A DNA stretch of 64,000 bases, from contig CAWKEG010000021.1 in the NCBI GenBank assembly GCA_963848515.1, positions 29,591 to 93,590 of the forward strand, read 5' to 3'. Positions 5,983-23,293 of this stretch are shown here, in pieces. Numbering within the stretch: position 1 is the stretch's first letter; each line of letters begins with the position of its first letter. Under the pieces are notes generated by a model, which did not search any database, was not told the DNA's origin, and saw only the letters and a program-made list of their open reading frames with translations. The position numbers were made by a program, and so were the translations under genes. Source of the DNA: an uncultured Acidobacteriaceae bacterium (lineage in GTDB: Bacteria > Acidobacteriota > Terriglobia > Terriglobales > Acidobacteriaceae).

Positions 5983-6063
5983 GCTCGACAATTTCCCTGC
6001 GTAACGGGATGCAGGCTCTATGGTAGAACTATCCTCGCCGGGCAGTCCAAGGCGGGGTGGGCG

Positions 6064-7269
6064 ATGTTGGACACTACCGAGCGATTTCTCGTGATCGCGA
6101 GCAGCGAGAAGGGGCAGGATTTTCTGCGCCAGTCCTCGGAGATGGGCGTAAAGTCCACGCTGTTGACGCTGAACAAGCTCGGCGATGGCGACTGGCCGCG
6201 CGAGGCTCTCGAAGAGCTGGCAACGATGCCTTCGGGGCTGAATCGCGAGCAGATTCTGAATACAGTTTCGTGGATGGCGCGCAGCAGGCGCTTCGATCGG
6301 ATTGTCGCGCTGGATGAGGCCGACCTGGAGATGGCGGCCGAGATCCGCGAACACATGCGCGTTCCGGGGATGGGCGTGACGACTGCGCGCTGCTACAGGG
6401 ACATGCTGGGCATGCGGGTGATTGCGCGCGCGATGGGGTTCCCGGTGGTGGAGTTTTGCCGGGTGCTGAACTACGACGAGCTGCGCGCGTTTATGGAGCG
6501 CGTTCCGGCACCGTGGTTGCTGAGGCCGCGCGCGGAGGCATCGGCATTGGCCACGCGCAAAATCGAAGAGCCCGAGCAACTTTGGCGCATCCTTGAGGAC
6601 CTGGGCGACGCGCAAAGCCACTACCTGTTGGAACAGCTTGTGGCGGGCGATGTTTTCGAGGTGGACTCGATCGTGAGCGAGGGCGAGGTCAAGTTCCAGG
6701 CCGTGCATCAGTGCGGGCGGCTGGCGATGCGCGGGGTGCGCGATGGCGGCGTATTCACTATGCGTACGGTCGACCGCGAGAGTAATGACCATAAGGATCT
6801 GTCTGCGTTGAACGCGAATCTTGCGCCTTCGCTGGGGATGCTGCGCGGCGTGACGCATGCGGAGTTCCAGCGCGCCCATGCCGATGGACGCTTCTATTTC
6901 CTTGAGGTCGGAGCTCGGGTTGGCGGCGGAGTGATTGCCGGACTGGTGGAGGCGGCTAGTGGCGTGAACCTGTGGCGGGAGTGGGCACGGCTGGAGGTCG
7001 GAAACCTGCGCGGGGAAGGCTATGCGCTGCCGGACGCATTTGAGGCCTATGCGGGCAGTGTGGTGTGCGTGGCGCAGGACGCTGGACCGGATGCCGGCGG
7101 ATTCGAGGCTCCGGAGATTGTGACGCGCTTCAAGAAGCAGCACCAGGCGGGGCTGATTGTGCGCTCGAGCAGGCCTGCGCGAGTGGCTGAGCTGGTGGAC
7201 GAATACGGCGCGGGGTTCTCGCGGCGTCTCTTGGATGCGCTGCCGCCGGAGAGCCTGGCGCAGGGTTAG
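6064..7269 (+). CDS. ATP-grasp domain protein
   Basis: LLRPRAEASA, YLLEQLVAG and FYFLEVGARVGG ATP-grasp motifs; start taken at MLDTTERF. Confidence 0.85.
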   Translation: MLDTTERFLVIASSEKGQDFLRQSSEMGVKSTLLTLNKLGDGDWPREALEELATMPSGLNREQILNTVSWMARSRRFDRIVALDEADLEMAAEIREHMRVPGMGVTTARCYRDMLGMRVIARAMGFPVVEFCRVLNYDELRAFMERVPAPWLLRPRAEASALATRKIEEPEQLWRILEDLGDAQSHYLLEQLVAGDVFEVDSIVSEGEVKFQAVHQCGRLAMRGVRDGGVFTMRTVDRESNDHKDLSALNANLAPSLGMLRGVTHAEFQRAHADGRFYFLEVGARVGGGVIAGLVEAASGVNLWREWARLEVGNLRGEGYALPDAFEAYAGSVVCVAQDAGPDAGGFEAPEIVTRFKKQHQAGLIVRSSRPARVAELVDEYGAGFSRRLLDALPPESLAQG

Positions 7270-7316
7270 GGGTTGCAGTTGGGGGTGTGGGCGGCTCGGG
7301 GGTGCGAAAGAGGCGA

Positions 7317-7345
7317 TTGACAGGGTACCCACTAATCGGTATGGT
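7317..7345 (+). promoter_or_regulatory. Sigma70-type promoter with overlapping TetR-type operator
   Basis: TTGACA-17 nt-TATGGT; near-palindrome tacccactaatcggta (7326-7341) lies in the spacer. Confidence 0.7.
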
Positions 7346-7368
7346 AAGGGCCAACTGGCCAGGTTGCC

Positions 7369-7998
7369 ATGCAAACGACTGAAAGACAACGCGAAGCGCA
7401 ACATGAGTCGAAGACGAAGCTTTTGGATGCGGCGCTGCGGGTGATCCGCGCCAAGGGCTATGGCGCGACGCGGATTGATGACGTTTGCGAGGCGGCCGGG
7501 CTGACCAAGGGCAGCTTTTTTCATCATTTCAACAGCAAAGAGGAGCTTGCGCTGGAGGCGGCGGAGTACTCTTCGCTACTTGCCGAAAAGGTGTTTTTAA
7601 CGGCGCCCTATCTGAGCCTGCCCGACCCGCTTGAGCGGTTGGTTGGGTACGTCGAATTCCGCAAGGCGATTCTGCAAGGCGACCAGCTGGATTACACCTG
7701 CCTGCTGGGTACCATGGTGCAGGAGACTTGCGAGACGCATCCCGCGATCCGGAAGGCCTGCGACCGGTACATTTGCGCTCATGCAGCTACGCTGGTGCCG
7801 GATATTGAGGCGGCGATACGCAAATACGGCATCCAGCCTGCGTGGACGGCAGAGAGCCTTGCCTACCATATACAGGCCGTGATGCAAGGGGCTTTCGTTC
7901 TGGCCAGGTCCAGGCAGAGCGCGCAGGTGGCGGTTGTTTGCCTGGATCATCTGCGGCGCTATCTGAAGACGCTGTTTCTTTATTCCTCGAACACATGA
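7369..7998 (+). CDS. TetR/AcrR-family transcriptional regulator
   Basis: KGYGATRIDDVCEAAGLTKGSFFHHFNSKEEL HTH; CLLG motif in the C-terminal domain. Confidence 0.93.
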   Translation: MQTTERQREAQHESKTKLLDAALRVIRAKGYGATRIDDVCEAAGLTKGSFFHHFNSKEELALEAAEYSSLLAEKVFLTAPYLSLPDPLERLVGYVEFRKAILQGDQLDYTCLLGTMVQETCETHPAIRKACDRYICAHAATLVPDIEAAIRKYGIQPAWTAESLAYHIQAVMQGAFVLARSRQSAQVAVVCLDHLRRYLKTLFLYSSNT

Positions 7999-8079: not shown

Positions 8080-8155
8080 TGGTGAGCTCGCTGGGATTCG
8101 AACCCAGGACCCACGCCTTAAAAGGGCGTTGCTCTACCAACTGAGCTACGAGCTC
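8080..8155 (-). tRNA. tRNA-Lys (anticodon TTT)
   Basis: 76 nt; GAGCTCG acceptor stem, D-arm agctcagttggtagagc, anticodon loop CTTTTAA, GGTTCGAATCC T-arm, encoded CCA. Confidence 0.97.
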
Positions 8156-8586: not shown

Positions 8587-10941
8587 ATGACTGAACGTGG
8601 ACCGCTGTACGACCAGGATGAGACGCCGGAAGATGTGGCGACGCTCTATTCCTGGGCCAATCTGCACGGCGCCAAGTATCGCGATTTTTCTGCGTCGCGG
8701 GCGCAGACGCGGGAGAAGGCGCGGTTGCGCGTGCAGCAGGCGATAGACGAAGAGCAGGCGCGGGCGCAGCAGGCAGCGGGAGCGGAACAGCCGGCGGAAA
8801 TCAACAATCTTGCAGACGTGGAACGCGCGGCGGAGATGCGGCGTCTGGCCGAGCAGGCACGGGCGGCCGAACAGGCGCGCATTGAGGAATTGGCGGCGCA
8901 GCAGGCGGCACTTGAAGCAGCCCAGCAGGCGGCACGCGATGCAGCCGACAAGGCGGCGCGGGAAGCAGGCGAAGCGGCGGCACGTGAGGCAGCAGAGCAG
9001 AAGGCACGCGAAGCGGCGGCGGAAGCTGCGCGCCAGGCAGCAGAGCAGGCTGCGCAAAGAGCAGCGGAGCAGGCAGCGCGCGTGGCAGCAGAAGACGCGG
9101 CACGCCGGGCTGCGGAAGCGGCAGCGCAAAGAGCAGCGGAGCAGGCGGCGGCGCAGGAGGCCGCACAAAGAGCTGCGGAAGCGGCAGCGCGCCAGGCTGC
9201 AGAAGAAGCAACGCGCCGAGCGGCGCAGGAGGCGGCGGAGCGAGCGGCAGAAGAGATAGCTCGCCGGACCGCGCAGCTTGCAGCGCAACAGGCAGCGGAG
9301 AGAGAAGCAGAGCAGGCGGCACGCGTGGCGGCGGAAAAGGCCGCGCAACAATTGGCCGAGCAAAGACTGGCTGCGCAGAGAGCGGCGCAGGAGGCCCAGT
9401 TGCAGGCTACGCGACTGGCAGCGGAGAAGGCTGCGCAACAGTTGGCTGCGCAACGGGCAGCGCTGCAGGCGCAGGCGGCCAAGGACGCTGCTCAGCGGGT
9501 TGCTGAAGAGGCCGCTCGGCAGGCAGAGCAACAGGCTGCGCGGCAGGCCGCCGAACAGGCTGCACAGCAACGGGCCGCGCAACTTGCGGCGGAACAAGCT
9601 GCTCATGAAGCCGCAGAACAGGCAGCGCGCGAGGCAGCGGAACGGGAGGCGCAACTGGCCGCAGAGCTAGCGGCGCAAGAGGCGGCGGAACGAGTCGCGC
9701 TGGAAGCAGCGCAGCGGGAAGCGCAGCAAAGGGCTCATGCGGAGCGCCTGGCTGCCGCGATGGCTGCGGAGGCTGCGCGGGCGACCTCACAACCAGCCGC
9801 ACCTTACTCCCCGCCCAAGCGCGATTACGCTGGACGCGATTTCCCAGGACACGATTACCCAGGGCACGATTTTCCGGGCTATGTTCCTCCTCCGGCTCAT
9901 GCGCCAGTTGAGAGCCAGCCGCAGGCTTCGGCGAAACACGAAGACAGCTATGCGCTGCCGCGCAATCCATGGGCAGCAGGCGATCAAGGCGAACATGCGG
10001 GTCGTCCGGCCTGGTTGATGCCGGACCGCGCGGAAGCCGCGCCTCCGCCGCCCATGCCTCAGGCCCCTGAAGATACACTGCAGGGCTCGCGGGATCGGCT
10101 GGCTTCACGCTGGTATGCGTTGCGGGGAGTTTTTGAAGGAGCGGGTGCGCAGGCGGAGGCGGTTCCGGCTCCGGTGGCGGCGCGCGCTCCGGTGGTGGCC
10201 ATCTTCTCGCTGGCCGGCGGCGTTGGCAAGACCAGCCTGGTGGCAACGCTGGGACGGGCACTCTCGGCACGCGGGGAGCGGGTTCTGCTGGTGGATACGG
10301 CGCCTTACGGATTGCTGCCGTTCTTCTTTGGCGCGCGCGATCAGCGGCCGGGGTTGCTGAGGACCTTCAGCCCTCCGGGCAATAGCGGCGATGCACCGAT
10401 CCAGATGGTGACGATCGACCCAGAGGGATTGGGTCCGGACTCGGCGAACCAGGATGCGCTGTCGGGAGAGATCACGACGTATTCGCGCGGCGCGAGCCGC
10501 GTGATTGTGGATTTGGCGACGGCCTCGGGTGCAACGACGCGGCGGGTTTTGCGGCTGGCGCCGCTGGTGCTGGTGCCGCTCGTGCCGGACATGAATTCGG
10601 TGGTCAGCTTCAGTTCCATCGACAGCTTCTTTCAACACAATGGAAACGCTCAAGCTAAACCGCCGCTGCCGTTCTATGTGCTGAACCAGTTCGATCCTTC
10701 GCTTCCGCTGCACCTGGATATTCGTGAAGTGCTTCGCGAGCAGTTGGGCGACCGTCTGCTGCCGTTTGTTCTTCGCCGCACGCCGGCGGTGAGCGAGGCG
10801 CTGGCCGAGGGGATGACGGTGATGGACTACGCGCCCAACTCCACCGTAGCTGAGGATTTCGGCAGCCTTGCCGGATGGGTGAAGAGCCAATCGGCTGCCG
10901 CGAGCAGCACCTATCGCGGAGTGCGCTGGAGTGAACGATGA
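8587..10941 (+). CDS. bcsQ: Cellulose biosynthesis BcsQ (MinD/ParA-like ATPase) fused to a BcsR/BcsP-like N-terminus and a long Ala/Glu/Gln/Arg-rich linker
   Basis: Walker A SLAGGVGKTS, VIVDL and EALAEG in the C-terminal ~250 aa; N-terminal DVATLYSWANLHGAKYRDFS; ATGA overlap with bcsA. Confidence 0.85.
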   Translation: MTERGPLYDQDETPEDVATLYSWANLHGAKYRDFSASRAQTREKARLRVQQAIDEEQARAQQAAGAEQPAEINNLADVERAAEMRRLAEQARAAEQARIEELAAQQAALEAAQQAARDAADKAAREAGEAAAREAAEQKAREAAAEAARQAAEQAAQRAAEQAARVAAEDAARRAAEAAAQRAAEQAAAQEAAQRAAEAAARQAAEEATRRAAQEAAERAAEEIARRTAQLAAQQAAEREAEQAARVAAEKAAQQLAEQRLAAQRAAQEAQLQATRLAAEKAAQQLAAQRAALQAQAAKDAAQRVAEEAARQAEQQAARQAAEQAAQQRAAQLAAEQAAHEAAEQAAREAAEREAQLAAELAAQEAAERVALEAAQREAQQRAHAERLAAAMAAEAARATSQPAAPYSPPKRDYAGRDFPGHDYPGHDFPGYVPPPAHAPVESQPQASAKHEDSYALPRNPWAAGDQGEHAGRPAWLMPDRAEAAPPPPMPQAPEDTLQGSRDRLASRWYALRGVFEGAGAQAEAVPAPVAARAPVVAIFSLAGGVGKTSLVATLGRALSARGERVLLVDTAPYGLLPFFFGARDQRPGLLRTFSPPGNSGDAPIQMVTIDPEGLGPDSANQDALSGEITTYSRGASRVIVDLATASGATTRRVLRLAPLVLVPLVPDMNSVVSFSSIDSFFQHNGNAQAKPPLPFYVLNQFDPSLPLHLDIREVLREQLGDRLLPFVLRRTPAVSEALAEGMTVMDYAPNSTVAEDFGSLAGWVKSQSAAASSTYRGVRWSER
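8720..9785 (+). repeat. Coding low-complexity helical repeat (AAEQAARxA-like)
   Basis: ~350 codons of imperfect A-A-E/Q-Q/E-A-A-R/Q repeats; proline is absent after the first few residues. Confidence 0.9.
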
Positions 10942-13900
10942 CCGCATCGGGCCTTTGGCAGGACATTGGGGCAGGGGAGAATTTTTTCACCAGGCTCCTG
11001 CGCCTGATTTTCCTGCTGGCAGCGGCGGCGTGCTTCTGCTTTCTCGCGATTTTGCCGCTGACCTGGCCGCAACAGGCGGTGCTGGGGTTGCTGACTTTGC
11101 TGATGGCGCTGGCCATGGCGCGCAGCTCCGACTCCTACCTGGTGACGCTGACCCTGATGATGATGTCGATGTTCTGCACGTTTCGCTATGGATACTGGCG
11201 CATCATGCAGGTGGTGCAGTTTTTTCAGGATCCGGCGAGTCACTGGGGCGCGCTGGATGTGTTTTTCATCATGTGCCTGCTGCTTGCCGAGGCGTATGCA
11301 TTTTTGATTTTGTTTCTCGGATACTTCCAGACGATCTGGCCGTTGCGGCGCGCGCCGGTGTCGCTGCCTGAGAATACGGACGACTGGCCGCATGTCGATG
11401 TCTTGATTCCGACCTATAACGAGCCGCTGGATGTGGTGCGCTACTCGGCGCTGGGCGCGATGAACATGGATTGGCCGGCGGACAAGATCCATATCTATGT
11501 TCTGGACGACGGGCGCAGGAAAGCGTTTGAGCGATTTGCGTTCGAGGCCGGCATCGGTTACAAGACCCGGGCTGACAATGCGCACGCCAAGGCGGGCAAC
11601 ATCAACGCCGCGCTGAAGACGCTGAGTTCGCCGCTGGTGGCCATCTTCGATTGCGATCACGTGCCGACGCGCAGCTTTCTGCAGATGACGGTGGGCTGGT
11701 TTTTGCGCGACCGCAAGCTGGCGATGCTGCAGACGCCGCACCATTTTTATTCTCCCGATCCTTTTGAGCGCAACCTGGAACAGTTTCGCGTGATTCCCAA
11801 CGAGGGCGAACTGTTCTATGGAGTCGTGCAGGACGGCAACGACTTCTGGAACGCGTCGTTCTTTTGCGGCTCGTGCGCGGTGCTGCGGCGGACGGCTCTC
11901 GATGAAGTGGGCGGCATCGCGGTCGAGACAGTGACGGAGGACGCACACACCTCGCTGCGCATGCAGATGAACGGCTGGGGCACGGCTTACGTGAATATTC
12001 CGCAGGCGGCCGGGCTGGCGACGGAAAGTCTGTCGGCGCACGTGGGCCAGCGCATTCGCTGGGCGCGGGGCATGATCCAGATTCTGCGCACCGACAACCC
12101 GCTGTTTGCACCGGGGCTGACGTTTGCGCAGCGCCTGTGCTACTTCAACGCGATGTGCCATTTTCTGTACGCGGTGCCGCGGCTGATCTTTTTGACCGCG
12201 CCGCTGATTTATCTTTTGCTGAACCACACCAATATTCCCGGCTACTGGGCGGCGATTCTGGCCTATGCGCTGCCTCACCTGACGCTTTCAAACGTGACCA
12301 ACTCGAGGATTCAGGGCGAGCACCGTCACTCTTTCTGGAACGAGATTTACGAGACGGTATTGTCGCCGTATATTCTGCTGCCGACCATGATGGCGTTGAT
12401 CAATCCCAAGCTGGGCAAGTTCAACGTGACCTCAAAGGGCGGCGTGGTGAAGCGCACCTTCTTCGACACGCGGATAGCGCAGCCGTTTCTGGTGATGCTG
12501 CTGTTCAACATTGCGGGGCTGATCGTGGCGATTCCGCGCTTCTTTATCTGGGACAGGGACCGTCCGGGCACGGTGATGATGAACGTGCTCTGGTGCTGCT
12601 TCAATGTTGTGATTCTGGGCGTGTGCACGGCGGTGGCGCGGGAGCTGAAGCAGTTGCGGACTACGGTGCGTATCAGCGTGGTTACCCCCGTTGTGGCCAG
12701 AATGCCGGACGGAAGGCGGATCAGCGGAGAGACAATCAACATGTCCAGTGGTGGCACCAGCATCCGCCTGAATGAGGCGATTGAAATCGCGCCATTGACT
12801 GAGGTGCGCCTGGCGTTTCCGGCGCCGGCCGCGGGAACCGAGATGCATGCGTCAGTCATGTCCTGCGAGGGATCGGTGCTGCGCGTGCGGTTTGAGAATT
12901 TATCGATTGCCGAAGAGGAAGTGTTGACGATGGTGCTTTATTCACGAGCAGACTCGTGGCTTGGCTGGGGTGAAGCACGCGAAAGCGATAACGTGCTGGT
13001 CAGCCTTGGACGCATTTTCCGGATATCGATGCATGGACTTGCCTCGACCTTCAGAAGCCTGTTTACCGACAAGGACGACGACGACCGGAAGGCGAGCTCG
13101 CTTTCCATTGCGCGCAGTTCGGTGATCTTCATCTTGGCCGCGCTTCTGATGGGCGGCGGGCAACACCTGCGCGGACAGGCGCAGCACGCGGCAGTTGCGG
13201 CAAAGACCGCGGCCAAAGCCGACGCTCCCCTTGGCCCTGGGCACTACAAGGACACGTTCTCGCTGAACGACGCCGGCTCGCCGCAGATTGAACTGCATGG
13301 CATCGACAGCATGCACAATATTTATTTCACGCTGCCCGAGACCCACGTTGTGAAGACGGCAAAGATTCACGTCTACTATGCATTTTCTCCGAGCCTGTTG
13401 CCGCAGTTGAGTCATCTGAAGCTGATTCTGAATGGAACGCTGTTTGCCACCATCCAGCCGACGCCGGGGCAGGTGGGCGGCTCCGACAGCCGCGATGCGG
13501 AGGCGGAGTTCACCATTCCGACGGATCTGCTGGTGCACAACAACACGCTGACCATCGAGTTCATCGGGCACTACACGATGGTTTGCGAGGACCCGGCTAA
13601 TACGACGCTTTGGGCACGCGTACATCGCACGACGTTTCTCGATATTGAGGGCGACCTGCTGCCACTGGCCGACGACCTGAAGCAGTTGCCGATTCCGTTT
13701 CTTGATCCGGCCGTGATTCAGCCTCTCAGCATACCGGTGGTTTTTGCAGGCACGCCCAGCTACAAGGCGATCCAGGCGGCGGGCATCGTGACCAGCTACT
13801 TCGGCATGCTCTCTGAAAACAGGCCGGTGCGTTTTCCAGTTCATTTTGGAGCTATTCCGCAAGGCAATGCAATCGTGATTGCGGACAATGCGGCGAATCT

Positions 13901-15350
13901 TCCCGCGGGGCTTGGCCTGCCCAGCATCAGCCTGCCGACCGTGGCCATGCGCACCAATCCCAACGACCAGTACGGCAAGATTTTGATTGTGACCGGCGGC
14001 GACGCCGACCAGCTTTTGATTGCGGCCCAGGCCGTGGCCTTGCACAGCGACATGCTGTCCGGCGGACTGGCCAGCATTGACAGCATCAAGCTGCCGGAGA
14101 AGCAGGGACCCGATACAGCGCCGCGCTGGGCACGCACCGATCAGACGATTCCGCTGTGGGATTACGCATTGTCCGATCAATTGCAGGGCGACGGCACTGC
14201 GCCCTTGAATGTCTACTTCCGCATTCCTCCCGACATTTTTTATGCCGACCGACCCAATGCGGTGCTGAAGCTGGTGTATCGCTACAATTCGATTCCGATC
14301 GGACCAATCTCGAGCCTCCAGGTGCGGGTCAACAACGCGTTTCTCGGATCGACACCGCTGATACCCGGGCAAGAGGCTTCGCGCAAGATGGAGACCGAGG
14401 TTCCGGTGCCGGTCGTGAATCTGCGGCCGTTCTCGAACTCGCTTTCCTTCGACTTCACTTTTCAATTGCTGAAAAAGGGAGGCTGCGAGGACACGACGCC
14501 GATCAATATGCAGGGCTCGATTCTGCGCGACTCGTACCTTGATCTGCGCGGCTATCCGCACTACGCGCCGCTGCCGAACCTGGAAACATTTGCCAACGCG
14601 GGGTTCCCGTTTACGCGCTTTGCCGATCTCGGCGAGACCACCGTTGTGCTTCCGCCCACGCCCACCGAGCAGGAGATCGAGACCTTCGTTACGCTGATGG
14701 GACACTTCGGCCGGCAAACGGGCTATCCGGGACTGCGCGTGACCGTGGCGGGGCCGGATGCGCTGCACCTGGGCGCGAGAACGGATTTTCTGATTCTGGG
14801 CACAGGGGACGATCAGCCGGGATTCGACCAGTTGAACAACACCCTCCCGGTTGCCTTGCGCAGCGGCCAGATTCAGGTGCGCGATACGCAGGGATTTTTT
14901 GCGCCGCTGCATCAGGCATGGTGGAAGCTCCGCTCCGACGAGCACTCCGAGTCCGGCGACCTGACCGCCTCCGGCACGCCTGACGCGGTGATTGAGGGAG
15001 TGGAATCGCCGTTCGATCCGGGCGCGGGCCGCAGCATTGTTGCCATTCACCTGAGGGATGCGAGCGCCTTCGAGCCTTTCATGGACACGTTCATAAAGAT
15101 TCAACAGTCGAGCGATGTCTCGGGCTCGGTTTCGGTTTTGCATGGGACGCAGTTCCAATCCTTCAGGATCGGCGCAGCGGTTTATCACGTGGGCGCGGTG
15201 CCATGGTGGACGCGACTGCGGCTTTGGCTCCGGCAGGTTCCGTGGCTGATCGCGGTGATCGTGGTGATTCTGGCGCTGCTTGTTTCGCTGTGGACAAGGC
15301 AGTGGCTGAGGGGCAGGGCCCGGTCGCGTCTGAGGATGATTGAGGACTGA
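10938..15350 (+). CDS. bcsA: Cellulose synthase BcsA-BcsB fusion (GT2 + PilZ + BcsB periplasmic domains)
   Basis: PTYNE, DDG, HAKAGN, FDCDH, QTPH, FFCGS, TED and QRIRW; PilZ RTTVR...NMSSGG; BcsB-like C-half (LDLRGYPHYAPLPNL...ANAGFPFTRFADL) with a terminal TM. Confidence 0.95.
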   Translation: MTASGLWQDIGAGENFFTRLLRLIFLLAAAACFCFLAILPLTWPQQAVLGLLTLLMALAMARSSDSYLVTLTLMMMSMFCTFRYGYWRIMQVVQFFQDPASHWGALDVFFIMCLLLAEAYAFLILFLGYFQTIWPLRRAPVSLPENTDDWPHVDVLIPTYNEPLDVVRYSALGAMNMDWPADKIHIYVLDDGRRKAFERFAFEAGIGYKTRADNAHAKAGNINAALKTLSSPLVAIFDCDHVPTRSFLQMTVGWFLRDRKLAMLQTPHHFYSPDPFERNLEQFRVIPNEGELFYGVVQDGNDFWNASFFCGSCAVLRRTALDEVGGIAVETVTEDAHTSLRMQMNGWGTAYVNIPQAAGLATESLSAHVGQRIRWARGMIQILRTDNPLFAPGLTFAQRLCYFNAMCHFLYAVPRLIFLTAPLIYLLLNHTNIPGYWAAILAYALPHLTLSNVTNSRIQGEHRHSFWNEIYETVLSPYILLPTMMALINPKLGKFNVTSKGGVVKRTFFDTRIAQPFLVMLLFNIAGLIVAIPRFFIWDRDRPGTVMMNVLWCCFNVVILGVCTAVARELKQLRTTVRISVVTPVVARMPDGRRISGETINMSSGGTSIRLNEAIEIAPLTEVRLAFPAPAAGTEMHASVMSCEGSVLRVRFENLSIAEEEVLTMVLYSRADSWLGWGEARESDNVLVSLGRIFRISMHGLASTFRSLFTDKDDDDRKASSLSIARSSVIFILAALLMGGGQHLRGQAQHAAVAAKTAAKADAPLGPGHYKDTFSLNDAGSPQIELHGIDSMHNIYFTLPETHVVKTAKIHVYYAFSPSLLPQLSHLKLILNGTLFATIQPTPGQVGGSDSRDAEAEFTIPTDLLVHNNTLTIEFIGHYTMVCEDPANTTLWARVHRTTFLDIEGDLLPLADDLKQLPIPFLDPAVIQPLSIPVVFAGTPSYKAIQAAGIVTSYFGMLSENRPVRFPVHFGAIPQGNAIVIADNAANLPAGLGLPSISLPTVAMRTNPNDQYGKILIVTGGDADQLLIAAQAVALHSDMLSGGLASIDSIKLPEKQGPDTAPRWARTDQTIPLWDYALSDQLQGDGTAPLNVYFRIPPDIFYADRPNAVLKLVYRYNSIPIGPISSLQVRVNNAFLGSTPLIPGQEASRKMETEVPVPVVNLRPFSNSLSFDFTFQLLKKGGCEDTTPINMQGSILRDSYLDLRGYPHYAPLPNLETFANAGFPFTRFADLGETTVVLPPTPTEQEIETFVTLMGHFGRQTGYPGLRVTVAGPDALHLGARTDFLILGTGDDQPGFDQLNNTLPVALRSGQIQVRDTQGFFAPLHQAWWKLRSDEHSESGDLTASGTPDAVIEGVESPFDPGAGRSIVAIHLRDASAFEPFMDTFIKIQQSSDVSGSVSVLHGTQFQSFRIGAAVYHVGAVPWWTRLRLWLRQVPWLIAVIVVILALLVSLWTRQWLRGRARSRLRMIED

Positions 15351-15426: not shown

Positions 15427-15581
15427 GCACATTCCTCTTCTCCGTTGTCCCTGCACATCGTCTTTAACTCCATGGAAACAAGCTGTATGCTAGAGGAATA
15501 GATAGCGGTTACTCGAAGGGGCGCCTGGCCGGATTCCAATAGCGATCTGCCACGCGGGCCTCTTTGCCGAGGACTTGTGCG

Positions 15582-16754
15582 ATGGGCATTCGGAAGTCCC
15601 TGCGCGGGAAGTGTGTTCTGCCGATCGTGCTATTGTCGATGCTCTCTGCAACGGGCGGGTGCAAGCAGCATAATTGGGCGCTCTGGGACGCGTATTCTTC
15701 GCGATTCATCGATGCACAGGGCCGCGTATTCGATCCCAAAGGTGATCAACACACCACGTCGGAAGGTCAGGCGTACGCGATGTTCTTTGCGCTGGCCGGC
15801 GATGATCGCGCACACTTCGACAAATTGCTCAGTTGGACCCAAGGCAACCTGGCTCAGGGCGACCTCGGCACGCATCTGCCGGCATGGCTATGGGGAAAAG
15901 ACCCGAGCGGCGCGTGGAAGACGCTGGACGCAAACTCGGCATCGGATGCGGATGTCTGGATGGCTTACACGCTGGTGGAAGCGGGGCGGCTTTGGAACAA
16001 TCCGCAGTACACGAACCTGGGCAGCCGGATGCTTTCGCAGATTGCCGTCACCGAGGTGGCGAATCTTCCCGGTTTCGGCTTGATGCTGCTGCCGGGCCCG
16101 ACAGGTTTCCAGCACGATCAGACGTGGACGCTGAATCCGAGCTATCTTCCGGTTTTTGTCTTTCAGCGGCTGGGGCAGTTCGATCCGAAAGGACCCTGGC
16201 AGCAGATCGCGCTCAACATTCCGCACCTGCTTGAGCAGAGCGCGCGCCACGGCTACGCGATGGATTGGGTAGATTATTTTCCCGGTGACGGTTTTTATCC
16301 TGCGACCGTCGAGAAGCCAGGAAGCAGCAGCAGCGATGGCGCGGGCGGTGGGTATGACGCAATCCGCGTATATCTGTGGGCAGGCATGACGGACGACAGC
16401 CAGGGAGCGCGTACAGATTTGGTAAATTACGTTTCCGGAATGGGCGGATATCTTGCCGATCATGATGCCCCCCCGGAAAAGGTAAGTGACCTTGGCGTGC
16501 CGATGGCGCAAGATGGTCCTGTGGGATTCTCGGCGGCCCTGCTGCCGTATTTGAATGCATTTCCCAATTTCTCGAAGATCAGCATTCAACAGATGATTCG
16601 AATGAATCTGATGAAGGATGAGTCGACGGGTTTGTATGGGAAAGACCTAAGCTATTACGATCAGAATCTTGTGCTGTTCGCAACTGGTTTTCTGGACGGC
16701 AGATTCCGGTTTGGCCCAGGGGGCGAACTGAAAGTAGATTGGAAGCGCCGATGA
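15582..16754 (+). CDS. bcsZ: Endo-1,4-beta-glucanase BcsZ (GH8)
   Basis: TTSEGQAYAMFFAL, LPAWLWG, NSASDAD, NPSYLP, YDAIRVYLW and YYDQNL; lipoprotein-like signal; GAGGA RBS. Confidence 0.95.
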   Translation: MGIRKSLRGKCVLPIVLLSMLSATGGCKQHNWALWDAYSSRFIDAQGRVFDPKGDQHTTSEGQAYAMFFALAGDDRAHFDKLLSWTQGNLAQGDLGTHLPAWLWGKDPSGAWKTLDANSASDADVWMAYTLVEAGRLWNNPQYTNLGSRMLSQIAVTEVANLPGFGLMLLPGPTGFQHDQTWTLNPSYLPVFVFQRLGQFDPKGPWQQIALNIPHLLEQSARHGYAMDWVDYFPGDGFYPATVEKPGSSSSDGAGGGYDAIRVYLWAGMTDDSQGARTDLVNYVSGMGGYLADHDAPPEKVSDLGVPMAQDGPVGFSAALLPYLNAFPNFSKISIQQMIRMNLMKDESTGLYGKDLSYYDQNLVLFATGFLDGRFRFGPGGELKVDWKRR

Positions 16755-19700
16755 GGGTTGGTTGCGGGACGGGGAGCAGGATTCTAGTTGCAGCGGGGTG
16801 CCTTTTGCTGGCGCTCCCGGTCGGTCTTGCTCAAAAGAAACCCGCCGCCGGCGCGCATGAGGGCGAACGGGGCACGCTGATTGACAAGGCGCGGGCGCTG
16901 GAGTCGCGGGGCCGGCCGGATATGGCCGTTCAACTTTGGCAGCAGATTCTGCTTTCGCAGCCCAACAATGCTGACGCACTCGCCGGCGTGGCCAAAGACT
17001 ATAAATTGATGGGCGAGGCGGACAAGGCTGACGCGGCACTGGATCGTCTGCGCAGGGTAAATCCCAACGACCCGAATATTGCCAAAATCGAGGCGCTGAG
17101 CAGCTCGAGCGCTCAGAGCGACGAGCTGCGCCACGCAGGCGAGCTGGCCAGGCAGGGCAGGGCCGATGAGGCGATGCAGATTTATCGGCAGTTGTACGGC
17201 GAACATCCGCCGGAAGGGCCAGTTGCGATTGCCTACTATCAAACGCTGTTTGGCACGGCCAACGGCAAAGCTGCGGCGATTGCGGGGATGAGATCGCTGG
17301 CCGATCGCAATCCGGGCGACGCGAGCACTGCGGTGGCGCTGGGCACGCTGCTGACTTACGACGCCAAGACCCGGCCCGAGGGAGTGCGCATTCTTGAGGC
17401 GCATCCGCAGGATGCCGATGCGCAGGCGGCGCTGCGGCAGGCGCTGATATGGGACTCGGCCAATCCGGCTTCCGCTGCGGAGTTGCGCCAATATTTGAAA
17501 GAGCATCCTCAGGATACGGAAGTTGCCGCAAACCTGAAGTCGAGCGAACGGAAGCTTGCGCAAATGAACTCGGGGATTGCGCGCACGCCGGCCGAGCGCG
17601 CGGCCTTTGCAGCGCTCAACGCGCACCGGTTGGAGGATGCGCAGCAGCGATTCGAGGCCTTGTTGCAGAAGGAGCCGAAGAACGGACGCGTTGCGGCGGG
17701 CATGGGATTTCTGCGCATGCAGCAGAAAGATTTTGGCGGCGCCATCAGTTATCTGACCGAAGCGCAGCAGGACGGCTACACGGCGAGAACGGTCGAGAAT
17801 GCGCTTACGACTTCGCGCTTCTGGTTCACGATGGCCGAGGCAACGCAGGCCTTCAACGAGAATCAACTGGTCGCGGCCGAAGCAAAGTACAAGACAGCGC
17901 TGGGCATGAATGCCCGCAGCGCCGAAGCGTTGAATGGATTGGCTGGCCTGCTGACCAAAGAGCAGAAGTATGCGCAGGCGGCGAGCGTCTACGAGCAATT
18001 GATCAAGGTGCAGCCCAATAATCTGGACGGATGGCGCGGAGTCTTTCTCTCCTATGCGCGCGACCACCAGTACCAGAAGGCTCTTTCGACGGCGGGGCGC
18101 TATCCGGCGCGGGTGAGACTGGCTTTGGCCAGGGATCCGGAGTACTTGAGCTCGCTGGCAAGCATCTATGAGGCGCAGGGGCGGAGCGCGGATGCCGAAC
18201 ACGTGTTGGCGCAGGCGCTGGCGCTGCCATTCCCCGACAACGGGACGAGCCTGAAGACGGATACAAAGCTGCAATACGCGGGCATCCTGATGGAGGCTAA
18301 ACGCTACGAGCAGGCCGCGGCGTTGTATACGCAAATACTCAACGAAGATCGAAACAACCTGTCGGCGTGGCTCGGCCTGGTGAGCGCGCATCACGGGCTG
18401 GGGCAGGATACGCTGGCCATCACGGACGTGCAGAAGATGCCTCCGGCGACGTACGAGGCCGCGCTGGGCGATGCGGGATTTCTATCGCTGCTGGGCGCAA
18501 TCTATCAGCAGGCCAATCAGCTTGAAGTGGCGCAAGGATTGCTGGAGCGGTCCGAGAAGCTGCAGACTGCGGCGGGCGGGCAGCCCAGCGTTGCGCTCGA
18601 ACTGCAGTTGGCCGGCATCTACCTGCTGCGCAATAACACCGCGCAGGCTTACGACATTTATAGCCGGGTGCTCAAAGCCAATCCCGGAAGTGCCGATGCG
18701 TGGAAGGGTTTGATTTCAACGCTGGCCGCGACCAACCGAAATGCGCAGGCGCTTGAAGAGATCGCGATGATTCCCGCGCCGGTGCGCAAGCAGCTTGAGA
18801 GCGATATTGAATTCGAGCAGACCGAGGCGGGCGTGTACGCCACAAGCGGCGATACGGCTCATGCCGTGGAATACATGAACCGCGTGCAGGCGCATTACGC
18901 GCGGCTCAAGATGCAGCCGCCGGCGAATGTAGACATCCAGAACGCGTGGCTGCTCTACAACACCGGCAACGACCGCGCTCTTTATCCTGCGCTGATGCGG
19001 CTGGGGAGCCGGAACGATCTCTCCGTCGCGCAGCGAGAGACGGTTCAGAACATCTGGGCCAACTGGAGCGTCCGCCGTGCCGCGGCGGCGATGGAGAACG
19101 GCAACATGCGTCGCGCGGTCGATATTTTGGATGCGGCTTCGCAGGCATTCCCAAACAACCTGACAGTGCGCAAGGCAGTGGCCGGTGGATTTGCGCGTGT
19201 GGGCCGCGCGAAGGAGTCGCTGGCGCTCTTCAAAGCGATTCCCATGCAGGATGCGAGCTCGGGCGATTTTCAAGGCGCGATTGGCGCGGCGCTGCAGGCA
19301 AACGACCGGAGCCAGGCTGAGTTGTGGTTGCGCCAGGCGCTGGAGCGGTTTCCGAACGACCCGGCGATTTTGTCGCTTGGGGCGCGTTACGAGCAGGCAC
19401 GCGGCGACAACGAGCGCGCTGCGGATTACTGGCGCGCGGCGCTGGCGGCCATGCCGGCGGCTACGCCCGTTGACAGGCTTGCGCACCAGTTGGCCTATCC
19501 CGAGCAGGATACAAAATCGCATCGCGCAGTAACGGCGGCCGATTTGCAGAACCTGCTCGATCCTGAGAACGAGCCTTTTGCGAAGACAACCAAGGTGCCG
19601 CCGCTGCCCGCATACGGGCCCGACCCTTATAACGGACCCGTGCCGGTAATGATCCCGCAGCCGCAGTCGTATGCGCCGCGGGCGGCAGACGCGGCGGGCA

Positions 19701-22700
19701 GAAACGCTTCTTCATCGAATGCCGGCCAGCCCGACGCGAATCCGCAGATCAAAGCGATTCCGTCGTCGCAGACGGCAAGTCCGCAACGGTTCCAGCAGCA
19801 GAGCGCGACGCGGATGGAAGCTGGAGATTCAGGTTGGAGCCAGGCGGGCTTTGGCGGATTGGTGGTTCGCGACGCGGTCTACCATCCGCAGGATCGAGTC
19901 TTGCGATTCGGTGCAACGGCGACGCCTCAGCGAGTTTATGACGCAAGCGGAGCAGCTTCGGCAGAGTTCGAACAAGCGCAGTATGCGAGCCAGGCAGACG
20001 TGCCGATCGCAGCGAACGCGCCGCATTCGATGGCATCCGACGCATGGAAGGGACTGGTCTTCTCGTTGATGGCGGGGAATCGCAACACAGAGGCGCTCGC
20101 AACGCTGAACAAGATTCCGCCGGATGTGCGTCGTCAACTGGAGAGCGATATCGAGTTTGTGCAGGGCGTCGCCAGCTTGTATGTGGCCGTGGGCGATGCG
20201 GCAATGGCGCGTGACTATTTGAACCGCGTGGAGAACTACTATCTGCTGCACCGGTCGGCTGCGCCGGCGGGTCTTGAAGTGCAACACGCGTGGCTGCTCT
20301 ATAACCTGAAGGATGACGTCTCTTTGTATCCGCTGATGCTGCGCCTGGATGCGCGCCCGGATTTGAGCGCGGCCGAGCGAGCGCAGTTGGATTCATTGTG
20401 GGCCACCTGGGCCGTGCGCCGTGCTGAGACTGCGATGAATGGAGGCAATCTTCTGCGCGGCGTGGAGATTTTGCAGGCTGCATCGAAGGATTACCCGGAC
20501 AATCTGGATGTGCGCAGAGCGGTGGCCGGTGCGTATGCACGAGTCGGGCGCGCTGCCGACGCGGTCACTCTTTTCAAAACGATTTCGATGGAGAACGCGA
20601 CCTCCGGCGATTACCAGGGAGCGATTTCGGCGGCTCTCGGCGCGACGGACATGGCGCAGGCCGAAGCCTGGTTGCGCCAGGCGTTGGCACGTTTCCCGAG
20701 CGATCCGAAGGTGCTGGGGCTTGCCGCACGATTCGAGCAGGCACGCGGCAACAATGAACGCGCCGCGGACTACTGGCGCGCTGCGCTGGCGACCATGCCT
20801 GCTGACTCGGCGGTCAAAAGTCTCGATAGCGGGCTCGGTTATCCGGCTGGATCGATCGCGCCCGCTGCGCCGGGAGACACAAAGCGATTGCTCGACCCGC
20901 GGCACGAGCCGGCAGCGAACAGTTTGCCGCCGTTGCCTGCCTATCCAACGGCTGATGCGAACCGTGCGCCGGTGGGCCTGGCCGGCCCACCCGCGGAATC
21001 CGCACCGCAGCATCAATGGCTCAACGCGCCGTCGAACGATCCACTGCCCATGCCTGGCGGGACGGGAGCGAACATTGTTCCGTTGCCGAATGCGCAGGGA
21101 ATCGCACCAGTGTACTCTCCGCAAAACGCGCAACAAGGAACGTCGGTGGCGCAGCCGGTGTTGATCCAGCAGAGTTGGACGCACCTGGTGACGACATGGC
21201 CGGAGGTGAGTGCAACTCATAGACGGAAGAAGGCTCATCGGCATCCTTCGACGTATGGCGCTTCGGCGCGGACACGGTCCGCTGCTAGAGCCAGGACCGC
21301 TGCGAGGGCCCGCGCCGCCGCAAGAGGACGAACGACGCTGCGTGCCAGGGCTGCATCCGGTACGCGAATGGCGCCGAGTGCAAGGACAGCCGCGAGTCCC
21401 CATCGTTATGCAGGCACGGTGAAGCTGCCGCCCTCGGAGCAGACCATCGCTTCGACGGAGGCGACAGTTGCAGCGCCAGGATTGCGGATCGCATCCGCGC
21501 CCATGGGACCGCTGGCAGCGCAGGTAAACGCCCGGTTTGCCGAAGAGACCGACAGCCAATTGACGCAGGGTTCGGCCGCGGTCATTCACACGCTGGCGAA
21601 TGCGCCGGTTAATGCGCAAATCCAGATGGGCGCGGCGCAGGTTCCGGCTGCTGCGACCGACGGTCAATACACGCAGGCGCAATATACGCCGTCTGCCCAG
21701 GAAGCAGCCACGGGCGCCTATTCGGTGCCGAGAAAACCTGCTGAAACCACGCCCGAGAAGCCTGCCGCGTCGACGCCGCGGACGTATGCGCATAAGAAAA
21801 CCCGTAAAAAAAGCAAACGAGCAATGCAGCAGGCCAGCCAGCCAACGAACGCGACGCTGGGCAATACGCCCGCACTGAGCAACGCACCGCAGACGCCTGC
21901 GGCTGAAAACGCGCAGCAGAACCAAACCTACGATGCGCAGTCTCCCGCGCCAACCTCAACGGGCGGGGGTTTGTCCGACGAGGAACTGGAGCAGAGGAAT
22001 CTGCCTCCGCTGCGCGGGCCATGGGTGCGCGTGCAGCGCGAGCCCAAACCCGTCAGTCCGCGTGAAGAGGCGGAGATGCAGTTGCGCACCATCGAGAGCG
22101 GCTACAGCGGCTGGCTCGGCGGCACGGGCTACATCAACTACCGCAGCGGCGCGCTGGGCTTTGACCACTTGTCGGCGCTTGAGTCACCGTTTGAAGCGTC
22201 CGCACCACTCGGGTACAACGGCCGGGTCACCCTTGTGGTCAAGCCCGTGTTCCTGGACTCCGGTCAGGCCGACGGCAGCGCGACGATCTCGGTAACGCAG
22301 TCGACGACGGGCGGCAATCAACTGGTTTCCATTCCCGAGCCCATCGGCACCCTGACCACGACCGACGTTAACCCGCCGGCGCAGCAAAACGCGGTCGGCT
22401 TTGGCGGCGAGGTGCAACTTGCGTTTCCTCACGCGGCAATTGCCGGCGGATACACACCGTACGGATTCCTGGTTTCGACCTTCACGGCTCGCGGCATGTT
22501 CCGGCCTGGCAACGGGCCCGTCACCATCACTGTCGCGCGCGACTCAGTCAAAGACAGCCAGCTCTCTTACAGCGGACTGCGCGACCCGGCGGGCGACACG
22601 CTTGGCAACCAGGGACAGATCTGGGGCGGCGTAGTTGCCAACCAGGGCAACGTGCAATTCTCGCGCGGCGACGCGATGTCTGGGTTCTACGTGGGCGCGG

Positions 22701-23293
22701 GCGGCCAGTACCTGACCGGCTATCACGTCGAAAACAATACGCGCATCGATGGGAACGGCGGCGCGTATTGGCGGCTGATGACTTCGCCGGAGAATGGCAA
22801 CCTGAGCATCGGCGTCAACTTTTTTGCAATGCATTACGCCAACAACGAGAACGCGTTTACGCACGGCATGGGCGGATACTTCAGTCCGCAGGGCTACTTC
22901 CTGGCCAATGTGCCGTTCACGTTCGTGGGCCACTACGGAACCAACTGGCACTACAACGTTGTGGGCGGGCTGGGCGTGCAGGCCTTCCAGGAAAACAAAA
23001 CGCCGCTGTGGCCGCTGGCCGGTGACAAGGCAATTGAGACAGGCCAGAACAATCCTATGCTGCCGGATGTGACCAACGTCGGGCCGAACTACGATTTGCG
23101 CGGCCAGGTGTCTTACCAGATCAGTCCGCACTGGTTTGCAGGTGGATTCTTCGGTGCGAACAATACGCGCAACTACTCGTCGGCCTCGGCAGGATTCTCG
23201 ATCCGCTACATGTTCCGCGAGCAGCCGTCCACGGCGACCGAGCCAACGGGGATCTTCCCTAGCGACGGCTTGCGGCCGTTTACGGTGCCGTAG
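16751..23293 (+). CDS. bcsC: Cellulose export outer-membrane protein BcsC (TPR + beta-barrel), unusually long
   Basis: Signal peptide; TPRs; C-terminal barrel with GGYFSPQ motif; position after bcsZ with ATGA overlap. Confidence 0.9.
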   Translation: MRVGCGTGSRILVAAGCLLLALPVGLAQKKPAAGAHEGERGTLIDKARALESRGRPDMAVQLWQQILLSQPNNADALAGVAKDYKLMGEADKADAALDRLRRVNPNDPNIAKIEALSSSSAQSDELRHAGELARQGRADEAMQIYRQLYGEHPPEGPVAIAYYQTLFGTANGKAAAIAGMRSLADRNPGDASTAVALGTLLTYDAKTRPEGVRILEAHPQDADAQAALRQALIWDSANPASAAELRQYLKEHPQDTEVAANLKSSERKLAQMNSGIARTPAERAAFAALNAHRLEDAQQRFEALLQKEPKNGRVAAGMGFLRMQQKDFGGAISYLTEAQQDGYTARTVENALTTSRFWFTMAEATQAFNENQLVAAEAKYKTALGMNARSAEALNGLAGLLTKEQKYAQAASVYEQLIKVQPNNLDGWRGVFLSYARDHQYQKALSTAGRYPARVRLALARDPEYLSSLASIYEAQGRSADAEHVLAQALALPFPDNGTSLKTDTKLQYAGILMEAKRYEQAAALYTQILNEDRNNLSAWLGLVSAHHGLGQDTLAITDVQKMPPATYEAALGDAGFLSLLGAIYQQANQLEVAQGLLERSEKLQTAAGGQPSVALELQLAGIYLLRNNTAQAYDIYSRVLKANPGSADAWKGLISTLAATNRNAQALEEIAMIPAPVRKQLESDIEFEQTEAGVYATSGDTAHAVEYMNRVQAHYARLKMQPPANVDIQNAWLLYNTGNDRALYPALMRLGSRNDLSVAQRETVQNIWANWSVRRAAAAMENGNMRRAVDILDAASQAFPNNLTVRKAVAGGFARVGRAKESLALFKAIPMQDASSGDFQGAIGAALQANDRSQAELWLRQALERFPNDPAILSLGARYEQARGDNERAADYWRAALAAMPAATPVDRLAHQLAYPEQDTKSHRAVTAADLQNLLDPENEPFAKTTKVPPLPAYGPDPYNGPVPVMIPQPQSYAPRAADAAGRNASSSNAGQPDANPQIKAIPSSQTASPQRFQQQSATRMEAGDSGWSQAGFGGLVVRDAVYHPQDRVLRFGATATPQRVYDASGAASAEFEQAQYASQADVPIAANAPHSMASDAWKGLVFSLMAGNRNTEALATLNKIPPDVRRQLESDIEFVQGVASLYVAVGDAAMARDYLNRVENYYLLHRSAAPAGLEVQHAWLLYNLKDDVSLYPLMLRLDARPDLSAAERAQLDSLWATWAVRRAETAMNGGNLLRGVEILQAASKDYPDNLDVRRAVAGAYARVGRAADAVTLFKTISMENATSGDYQGAISAALGATDMAQAEAWLRQALARFPSDPKVLGLAARFEQARGNNERAADYWRAALATMPADSAVKSLDSGLGYPAGSIAPAAPGDTKRLLDPRHEPAANSLPPLPAYPTADANRAPVGLAGPPAESAPQHQWLNAPSNDPLPMPGGTGANIVPLPNAQGIAPVYSPQNAQQGTSVAQPVLIQQSWTHLVTTWPEVSATHRRKKAHRHPSTYGASARTRSAARARTAARARAAARGRTTLRARAASGTRMAPSARTAASPHRYAGTVKLPPSEQTIASTEATVAAPGLRIASAPMGPLAAQVNARFAEETDSQLTQGSAAVIHTLANAPVNAQIQMGAAQVPAAATDGQYTQAQYTPSAQEAATGAYSVPRKPAETTPEKPAASTPRTYAHKKTRKKSKRAMQQASQPTNATLGNTPALSNAPQTPAAENAQQNQTYDAQSPAPTSTGGGLSDEELEQRNLPPLRGPWVRVQREPKPVSPREEAEMQLRTIESGYSGWLGGTGYINYRSGALGFDHLSALESPFEASAPLGYNGRVTLVVKPVFLDSGQADGSATISVTQSTTGGNQLVSIPEPIGTLTTTDVNPPAQQNAVGFGGEVQLAFPHAAIAGGYTPYGFLVSTFTARGMFRPGNGPVTITVARDSVKDSQLSYSGLRDPAGDTLGNQGQIWGGVVANQGNVQFSRGDAMSGFYVGAGGQYLTGYHVENNTRIDGNGGAYWRLMTSPENGNLSIGVNFFAMHYANNENAFTHGMGGYFSPQGYFLANVPFTFVGHYGTNWHYNVVGGLGVQAFQENKTPLWPLAGDKAIETGQNNPMLPDVTNVGPNYDLRGQVSYQISPHWFAGGFFGANNTRNYSSASAGFSIRYMFREQPSTATEPTGIFPSDGLRPFTVP

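Follow-up and report, generated by a model that had tools for sequence, protein, structure and literature searches.

At the head of a cellulose synthesis (bcs) operon of an uncultured Acidobacteriaceae bacterium stands a bcsQ gene whose product carries ~530 residues N-terminal to its ATPase domain. The operon lies in a 64,000-nucleotide stretch of contig CAWKEG010000021.1 (the window), and we refer to the gene as long bcsQ and to the N-terminal extension, made up of an invariant tip of ~25 residues, a long helix and a Pro-rich stretch, as the arm. Sequence comparison firmly placed the protein in a conserved BcsQ family in which a tethered, invariant N-terminal motif and an ATPase-proximal helix are joined by a plastic linker of helix plus disorder. 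As to what the arm does, the most economical reading, to which we give about an even chance, is that it is the cis equivalent of the partner proteins BcsR, BcsP and BcsO and that its tip is a BcsA-binding plug. An earlier note made from the letters of this DNA had described a single polypeptide in which an N-terminal motif is connected to BcsQ through a very long spacer, and every detail that it listed was found where the note had placed it. The parts of the gene are as follows.

8587..10941, plus strand: long bcsQ, whole gene, its single open reading frame (ORF) architecture kept in 127 complete relatives.
8620..8700, plus strand: invariant N-terminal motif ETPEDVATLYSWANLHGAKYRDFSASR, residues 12-38, based on invariant columns, hhalign and an AlphaFold2 (AF2) helix at residues 15-26 with a low predicted local distance difference test score (pLDDT).
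8686..8778, plus strand: basic helix after the motif, residues 34-64, with conserved R38, R42, R46 and R48, based on AF2 (residues 34-64, pLDDT 61-81) and conservation.
8815..9768, plus strand: Ala/Glu/Gln/Arg-rich helical spacer, residues 77-394, with degenerate 8-residue (24-nt) repeats, based on the repeats, AF2 and composition.
9769..10077, plus strand: Pro-rich disordered segment, residues 395-497, based on 20% Pro, a 15-nt repeat and AF2 (pLDDT 31-49).
10075..10134, plus strand: conserved pre-ATPase helix TLQGSRDRLASRWYALRGVF, residues 497-516, based on conservation and AF2 (residues 498-516, pLDDT 57-66).
10189..10896, plus strand: BcsQ SIMIBI/ParA-like ATPase domain, residues 535-770, based on Pfam, NCBIfam, PDB, Foldseek and AF2.
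10915..10938, plus strand: conserved C-terminal tail RGVRWSER, whose codons include the GGAG Shine-Dalgarno sequence of bcsAB.

A conserved long form of BcsQ

The gene reads as one ORF (8587..10941, plus strand) that starts with ATG and encodes a single polypeptide of 784 aa. In the source annotation only 295 aa are called, from an internal Met start, and a look-up of this call found no record of it. On a 304-kb contig of a relative, one gene has been called twice, at 926 aa and at 249 aa; other pipelines' calls for family members run from 249 to 336 aa, so that the arm is routinely lost from annotation. Such short versions are what would be seen if the long ORF were an annotation artifact, with BcsQ starting at M478 or M490 and the sequence upstream being untranslated or a separate gene, and the GC content at third codon positions of the repeat region (0.61, versus 0.77 in bcsAB) points the same way. 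We nevertheless consider this explanation barely credible. The skew of the repeat region stems from its composition, and the first 62 codons have a codon-position GC of 0.71/0.45/0.76, typical of the genome (bcsAB, 0.59/0.44/0.77). Furthermore, in 127 relatives the frame runs open from the N-terminal motif into BcsQ even though length varies 4.7-fold, the motif is under extreme purifying selection, and a conserved RPAWL motif lies upstream of both M478 and M490, with the pre-ATPase helix just downstream of them. Codon-position GC and conservation across the 127 members thus led us to reject an artifactual ORF. The DNA of the spacer consists of 24-nt and 12-nt repeats that are degenerate (65 to 80% identity), and it is thus not an assembly artifact. 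At the level of sequence, the 784-aa ORF is therefore confirmed as genuine, the support coming from conservation and not from the source annotation.

Among the 120 best BcsQ homologs, 93 carried motif and ATPase in one ORF. Pooling the BcsQ homologs with the hits of a profile search of representative sequences gave 127 complete single-ORF members with total lengths of 454 to 985 aa. In that search, a profile of the N-terminal motif run against 1.84 billion representatives matched 334 clusters (50% identity), and among the matches listed (150 of the 334), all belonged to the same acidobacterial family. The relatives bear names such as Terracidiphilus sp. and Acidobacteriaceae bacterium, and databases label the long BcsQ proteins simply YhjQ/BcsQ. 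The N-terminal motif is absent from many database entries because gene callers often truncate the family to its ATPase domain.

The core of the motif, EDVATLYSWANLHGAKYRDFS, corresponds to residues 15 to 35 (nt 8629-8691). Its family consensus, ETPEDVAtLYSWANLHGAKYRDFSASR, is almost invariant; D16, A18, L20, Y21, W23, A24, N25, L26, G28, K30, Y31, D33, F34 and S35 were identical in all 123 aligned members, and this invariance held down to an overall identity of ~40%. Basic residues in the motif and in the helix that follows it (K30, R32, R38, R42, R46 and R48) were likewise invariant or nearly so. In the AF2 model of the window protein, which was run as a single chain with the family alignment, residues 15 to 26 form a helix with a pLDDT of ~50.

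The second conserved element of the arm stands directly before the ATPase. The segment RLASRWYALRGVF, to which the earlier note had drawn attention, comprises residues 504 to 516 at exactly nt 10096-10134 and belongs to a longer helix whose consensus, TLQGSRDRLaSRW[FY]AL (residues 497-512), is invariant in the family. From its SRW to the Walker A motif, 88 members have between 34 and 43 residues, and the large majority of them 37 ± 2.

By sequence and predicted fold, the C-terminal ~250 residues are the BcsQ ATPase. The protein matched PF06564 with 73.9 bits (cutoff, 21.3) and TIGR03371 with 156.0 bits (E value, 1.1e-45), the latter just below the equivalog cutoff of 157.85. E. coli BcsQ was the top match both in a phmmer search of the PDB (5e-9) and in Foldseek (6yay_B, 2e-9), with Soj/ParA scoring nearly as high in Foldseek, and the pLDDT exceeded 90 over residues 535 to 770. 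The Walker A motif, A543-GGVGKTS-550, is encoded by nt 10213-10236; among 123 relatives, G544 to K548 do not vary, and A543 is kept in at least 90%. As the earlier note had read from AGGVGKTS, the P-loop Lys is retained, whereas the signature Lys of the MinD/ParA motif KGGxGK[ST] is replaced by Ala. In this respect the protein differs from Burkholderiaceae BcsQ, whose Walker A (KGGVGKTT) has the signature Lys, and from E. coli BcsQ (GGVGTT), relative to which it keeps the P-loop Lys.

A plastic linker between motif and ATPase

The Ala/Glu/Gln/Arg repeats and the Pro-rich stretch described in the earlier note are borne out by composition: residues 63 to 420 are 43% Ala, 15% Glu, 14% Gln and 11% Arg, and residues 420 to 505 are 20% Pro. 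Within the spacer proper (residues 77-394), the figures are 45% Ala, 15% Glu, 15% Gln and 12% Arg, with large hydrophobic residues at 7.5%. Opposite charges recur at i,i+4 in 41 pairs, versus 14.4 expected (z = 8.3), and the autocorrelation of Ala is 0.61 at lag 4 and −0.11 at lag 7. AF2 modeled two helices, residues 77 to 174 and 182 to 394, with a pLDDT of 80 to 88 and a break at residues 175 to 181. Such a combination characterizes an Ala-based, salt-bridged single helix, as predicted, and not a heptad coiled coil. Of the two architectures that the earlier note had offered, a long single alpha helix or a coiled coil, the helix is thus the one supported; a canonical heptad coiled coil was rejected on the absence of a lag-7 signal.

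Single alpha-helix (SAH) spacers are known in the form of ER/K motifs and of Ala-based (EAAAK)n helices. The window spacer resembles both in its i,i+4 charge periodicity, its few large hydrophobic residues, its lack of a heptad signal and its confidently predicted helix. In being only ~30% charged (Ala, 45%; Gln, 15%), however, it comes nearer to the designed Ala-based helices than to the ER/K SAHs found in nature.

The Pro-rich segment that follows contains a 5-residue (15-nt) tandem repeat, [RH]D[YF]PG, in three and a half copies at nt 9820-9871 (RDYAGRDFPGHDYPGHDFPGY). Near its C-terminal end lies RPAWL (residues 473-477, nt 10003-10017), in which P474, A475, W476 and L477 are at least 90% conserved. 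Outside RPAWL, the linker had zero conserved columns in the 123-member alignment.

The length of the linker is as variable as its sequence. Across the 127 members, the distance from motif to Walker A ranged from 151 to 705 residues, with a median of 252, and the window protein stands at the 90th percentile. A 458-aa relative has almost no Ala-rich helix, and its AF2 model agrees with that of the window protein over the shared parts; in other long relatives, it is the disordered Pro/Ser/Gln part that is expanded instead.

These data bear directly on the suggestion, made in the earlier note, that the spacer is a ruler. A calibrated rigid ruler or coiled-coil stalk would hold the target of the motif ~50 nm from BcsQ, and the ~320 residues predicted to be helical, together with a strong i,i+4 salt-bridge pattern of the kind seen in stable single alpha-helices, are what such a device would require. 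The comparison of linker lengths that the note itself had proposed goes against it: because length varies 4.7-fold among the 127 Acidobacteriaceae family members and ~100 disordered residues lie in series with the helix, a ruler of fixed length is unlikely. The short members almost without Ala-rich helix, the long members that expand disorder instead, the helix break at residues 175 to 181 and the missing heptad signal tell against it as well, and all in all we regard a ruler or stalk as very improbable.

Possible relationship of the arm to BcsR, BcsP and BcsO

In E. coli BcsR, residues D21 to S30 form a helix after which the chain turns back, so that L25, F29, L31 and I34 plug a hydrophobic pocket of BcsA; an I22:Y36 contact closes the hairpin, and D21 sits between BcsA R367 and R792 (PMC11470070). 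D21, L25, L31 and Y36 all belong to this BcsA-binding plug, and mutations in them abolish secretion, while two C-terminal helices of BcsR, as a pair, hold the BcsQ dimer in a clamp (PMC11470070). In BcsP, the N-terminus resembles that of BcsR and leads into a Pro-rich region (PMC11470070).

We compared the motif with E. coli BcsR (sequence verified against 6YAR), with a set of genuine BcsP proteins from Caballeronia, Cupriavidus and Burkholderia plasmids and 36 Burkholderiaceae genomes, which matched NF040718 and PF10945, and with four BcsO proteins from enterobacterial plasmids. In hhalign, the motif aligned with the BcsR/BcsP N-module without gaps and in the best-scoring register, which pairs D16 with D21 of E. 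coli BcsR, V17 with I22, L20 with L25, L26 with L31, Y31 with Y36, D33 with D38, F34 with I39 and S35 with S40. The P value was 0.0097 (3 of 120 column shuffles scored as well), 0.01 with the server tool and 0.0029 when BcsO was added to the profile (1 of 100 shuffles). Four residues of the N-module are invariant in BcsR and BcsP, namely, D, L(+4), F(+8) and Y(+15), and three of the four are present and invariant here at the exact spacing, as D16, L20 and Y31. Furthermore, the AF2 helix at residues 15 to 26 matches BcsR helix alphaN (D21-S30), and its low confidence is typical of motifs that fold on binding. The presumed target also fits: BcsA of the window matched E. coli BcsA at 1e-206 and Rhodobacter BcsA at 1e-107, and its R245 and R670 are the equivalents of E. 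coli R367 and R792. Whereas R367 is universal, the hinge Arg (R792, here R670) is Glu in the aligned chains of Rhodobacter BcsA.

A number of results weigh against an identification with BcsR or BcsP. The earlier note had proposed searching both segments against BcsR/BcsP profiles, and neither the whole protein, its N-terminal 90 aa, the pre-ATPase 138 aa nor a splice of the N- and C-terminal parts gave a match to PF10945, NF040717 or NF040718 at an E value of ≤10, although the same curated models score genuine BcsP at 53 to 87 bits (1e-14 to 1e-25); apart from the ATPase, the Pfam and NCBIfam scans of these four sequences detected nothing. A hidden Markov model (HMM) built from 44 enterobacterial BcsR sequences gave negative bit scores with the window protein, and a BcsR/BcsP HMM scored the motif at 2 to 3 bits, with an empirical p of ~0.04 in one direction and ~0.24 in the reverse test (shuffles). 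The hhalign probabilities for the motif, 4 to 11%, are far below accepted homology thresholds, and a search of the PDB with the motif profile did not find BcsR and returned chance matches at E > 1. Within the motif itself, the invariant F(+8) is replaced by Ala24, with Trp23 one position earlier, and the RWPLL expected ~14 residues after the Tyr is missing, since the sequence past Y31, RDFSASRAQTREKARLRVQQ, has no Trp. AF2 monomers of the window protein and the 458-aa relative gave both motifs low confidence and did not dock either of them confidently, so that contact with BcsQ is neither shown nor excluded, and the similarity of the pre-ATPase helix to its two candidate counterparts, given below, is not significant. 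Modules this short can barely be detected; by the same hhalign test, the P value for BcsO against BcsR/BcsP was only 0.026. We therefore describe the likeness of the N-terminal motif to the BcsR/BcsP N-module as suggestive: the resemblance that the earlier note had seen at the N-terminus is recovered as an ungapped alignment, but the curated models are silent and the P values are 0.003 to 0.01.

If the resemblance is due to chance, the motif would be an unrelated short linear motif, and several roles could be imagined for it. Basic N-terminal peptides of ParB, ParG and MinE stimulate the ParA and MinD ATPases, and the motif could be a tethered regulator of the BcsQ ATPase of this kind, supplying in cis or in trans a basic residue to compensate for the missing signature lysine, in whose place at least 90% of the family have Ala; alternatively, BcsQ could be anchored through the motif, as by a handle, to a landmark at the pole or in the cytoskeleton. 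The invariant or nearly invariant basic residues at positions 30, 32, 38, 42, 46 and 48, the silence of the curated models and the weak profile statistics would all agree with such a role, as would the observations that the N-terminus of E. coli BcsR can also lie on the surface of BcsQ in crystals (PMC11470070) and that BcsQ has a polar location in E. coli (cited in PMC8892547). However, the ungapped match spans exactly the residues of the BcsA plug, the operon has no other gene of BcsR, BcsP or BcsO type and yet its BcsA is of the E. coli kind, which works with one, and AF2 does not put the motif on the ATPase. On balance, we find an unrelated motif doubtful, if a serious contender.

The pre-ATPase helix raises a separate question. 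The earlier note had taken it for the C-terminal motif of a BcsR split in two, which would mean that the spacer was inserted between the N-terminal hairpin and the C-terminal RW helices of an ancestral BcsR-BcsQ fusion and that the helix is the counterpart of the alphaC1/alphaC2 pair of BcsR that clamps the BcsQ dimer. Its SRW[FY]AL, the only RW in the arm, ~470 residues downstream of the motif, does align with RWPLL in hhalign, collinearly with the N-terminal match; moreover, the helix lies at a fixed 37 residues before Walker A, roughly where the C-terminus of a directly fused BcsR would sit, and BcsR-BcsQ fusions have been reported (PMC8892547). The alignment to RWPLL was not significant, however (P 0.066 to 0.089, with 19 to 34% of shuffles as good), the Pro that would make a V-shaped helix pair is absent, and AF2 gave one straight helix. 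The C-terminal motif of BcsP and BcsO fitted at least equally well, in fact slightly better (P 0.03, 8 of 100 shuffles). Since a likeness of the second motif to BcsR could not be demonstrated, we consider a literal split BcsR unlikely, and less likely than a cis partner in the general sense.

We thus favor, with the reserve expressed at the outset, the reading of the arm as a cis partner of BcsQ, on the grounds of operon logic, the register-exact match of functionally critical residues, the plan shared with BcsP and BcsO, and the E. coli-type BcsA. On this model, as in E. coli, the BcsQ domain would form an ATP sandwich dimer that sits on BcsAB at its PilZ module, and the N-terminal motif would fold on binding (helix 15-26, a turn, then Y31) and plug the GT/PilZ hinge of BcsA in the manner of the N-terminal hairpin of BcsR or BcsP. 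D16 would come to lie between R245 and R670 of BcsA and so stabilize the active synthase. The linker would act as a flexible or semirigid tether that ensures 1:1 stoichiometry and a high local concentration; it may allow one BcsQ dimer to reach its own or a neighboring synthase, and it would not be a calibrated ruler. The pre-ATPase helix would be the ATPase-proximal element, equivalent either to the RW helix at the C-terminus of BcsR, which stitches together the dimer of BcsQ, or to the C-terminal L..VFERL helix of BcsP and BcsO.

A more far-reaching version, which we think rather improbable, is that an ATP-bound BcsQ dimer works in trans, its two plug-tipped arms cross-linking neighboring BcsAB synthases into clusters or rows. 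Each arm would consist of a ~320-residue helix, roughly 50 nm long if fully extended, plus ~100 disordered residues. If so, cellulose terminal complexes would be organized independently of BcsD, BcsH and BcsE, and lineage-specific arm lengths would tune their spacing and through it the fibril architecture of acidobacterial cellulose, of which the cellulose "chambers" of Acidisarcina are an example (PMC9693552).

The bcs operon, its surroundings and known systems

Long bcsQ heads a compact, minimal operon of the order bcsQ-bcsAB-bcsZ-bcsC. The remaining genes are as follows.

10938..15350, plus strand: bcsAB fusion of 1470 aa (GT2, PilZ and BcsB), from domain scans.
15564..16754, plus strand: bcsZ, GH8 endoglucanase, from Pfam/NCBIfam scans.
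16739..23293, plus strand: bcsC of 2184 aa (TPR repeats and BCSC_C porin), from Pfam/NCBIfam scans.

The stop codon of long bcsQ overlaps the start codon of bcsAB in the form ATGA (10938-10941), and relatives have the same operon and the same 4-nt overlap. With the ribosome binding site of bcsAB embedded in the codons of the tail, the conservation of RGVRWSER as protein may partly reflect translational coupling (10915-10941). In the 926-aa relative, not only the bcsQ-bcsAB-bcsZ-bcsC operon but also the upstream CofD and DUF4254 neighbors are the same. We searched the window near long bcsQ for bcsD, bcsE, bcsF and bcsG and the interval between tRNA-Lys and long bcsQ for a small ORF resembling bcsR, bcsP or bcsO, and found none of them.

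In the literature searched, the regulation of such minimal four-gene operons, without BcsR, BcsP or BcsO, without BcsD and without BcsE, BcsF and BcsG, is not described. The bacteria that carry them, the Acidobacteriaceae, rank with the most abundant in soil. If the motif is a BcsA-activating plug, long BcsQ would be a natural single-chain BcsR/BcsP-BcsQ module with a short, mutable motif and ready-made linker-length variants, in which the E. coli model of "activation by plug" could be tested in a second phylum, and engineered cellulose production could gain a compact regulatory cassette from it.

Upstream of the operon lie a TetR gene (7369-7998) and, between the two, a tRNA-Lys (anticodon TTT; 8080-8155, minus strand), the sole Rfam match across the 64-kb window; a promoter and terminator scan found nothing relevant. 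An ORF of 719 aa (5368-7527, minus strand), whose sole Pfam match is DUF4254 in the C-terminal residues 551 to 692, overlaps the start of the TetR gene with its 5′ end by ~160 nt. Its true start is probably internal; the DUF4254 protein of one relative has 216 aa. bcsC is unusually long, with a low-complexity Ala/Arg/Thr/Pro-rich stretch ahead of the BCSC_C porin and an internal TPR duplication of ~305 residues (54% identity; blastp E value, 1e-115), the units being residues 651 to 959 (nt 18689-19615) and 1099 to 1402 (nt 20033-20944). A DUF2089 gene lies further along the window, at 26377-26724. One abundant relative (483-aa long BcsQ, at least 24 contigs) has DUF2089/SHOCT-like genes after bcsQ-bcsAB, instead of bcsZ and bcsC. 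Another relative carries, just upstream of its long-bcsQ locus, a cluster resembling a cyclic oligonucleotide-based antiphage signaling system (CBASS), with SMODS nucleotidyltransferase, E2-CBASS and SAVED effector genes, as well as IS21/Mu-type transposase genes; its assembly has many frameshifts, its bcsB and bcsZ are fragmented and its long bcsQ is broken into calls of 88 and 264 aa.

The fusion of BcsR and BcsQ as such is already known: a review, citing Romling and Galperin (2015), describes the two "as separate or fused subunits" (PMC8892547). Those fusions share with long BcsQ the joining of an accessory peptide and BcsQ in one polypeptide but are, by description only, direct ones; neither a long spacer nor an acidobacterial case is described in the literature searched. 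The same holds for the acidobacterial BcsQ extension with its invariant motif and spacer.

BcsP (NF040718, PF10945), encoded directly upstream of bcsQ in the bcsD-bcsP-bcsQ arrangement of Burkholderiaceae, is 139 to 265 aa long and combines an N-module, a variable Pro/Ala-rich linker and a short conserved C-terminal helix, sLxxvFeRLr, an arrangement that resembles that of the arm. It differs in being a separate protein that works with BcsD, which is absent from the window operon, in having RWPLL 14 residues past the Tyr, and in a linker without a long Ala/Glu/Arg helix; its HMM match to the window protein is not significant.

BcsO, from the plasmid bcsOQABCDZ clusters of Klebsiella, Enterobacter, Raoultella and E. 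coli, is also a separate protein, of 170 to 195 aa and without a helical spacer. Its N-terminal DDLQRF...FKD[LF]S[SA]Q resembles, with identical spacing, EDVATL...YRDFSAS of the window protein, and it likewise has a Pro/Ala-rich middle; it ends with a QPL.SLLERI helix and an overlap with the start of bcsQ. Our own alignments are the sole basis for relating BcsO to either BcsR or the window protein (P 0.03 each), and a search for a matching NCBIfam or Pfam model found none. BcsP and BcsO look like two versions of one plan, in which a BcsR-like N-module (in BcsO, DDLQRF...FKD[LF]S...W.I.NQL) is joined by a Pro/Ala linker to an L..[LV][FL]ER[LI] helix at the C-terminus, and the gene stops at the start of bcsQ or overlaps it. 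Linker length is variable across the BcsP set; only four BcsO proteins were compared.

From the E. coli BcsR2Q2 complex (PDB 6YAR and 6YB3; cryo-electron microscopy structure 9FNN), the window protein differs in being one chain, with ~470 residues between the motif and the ATPase-proximal helix, and in lacking both RWPLL and the BcsE, BcsF and BcsG proteins for recruitment of the complex. It is like that complex in being encoded by the first bcs cistron(s) and in its BcsQ-family SIMIBI ATPase, in the partner N-terminus D..xL...........Y.D[IF]S and in a BcsA of the same type that has both Arg residues of the R-D-R triad.

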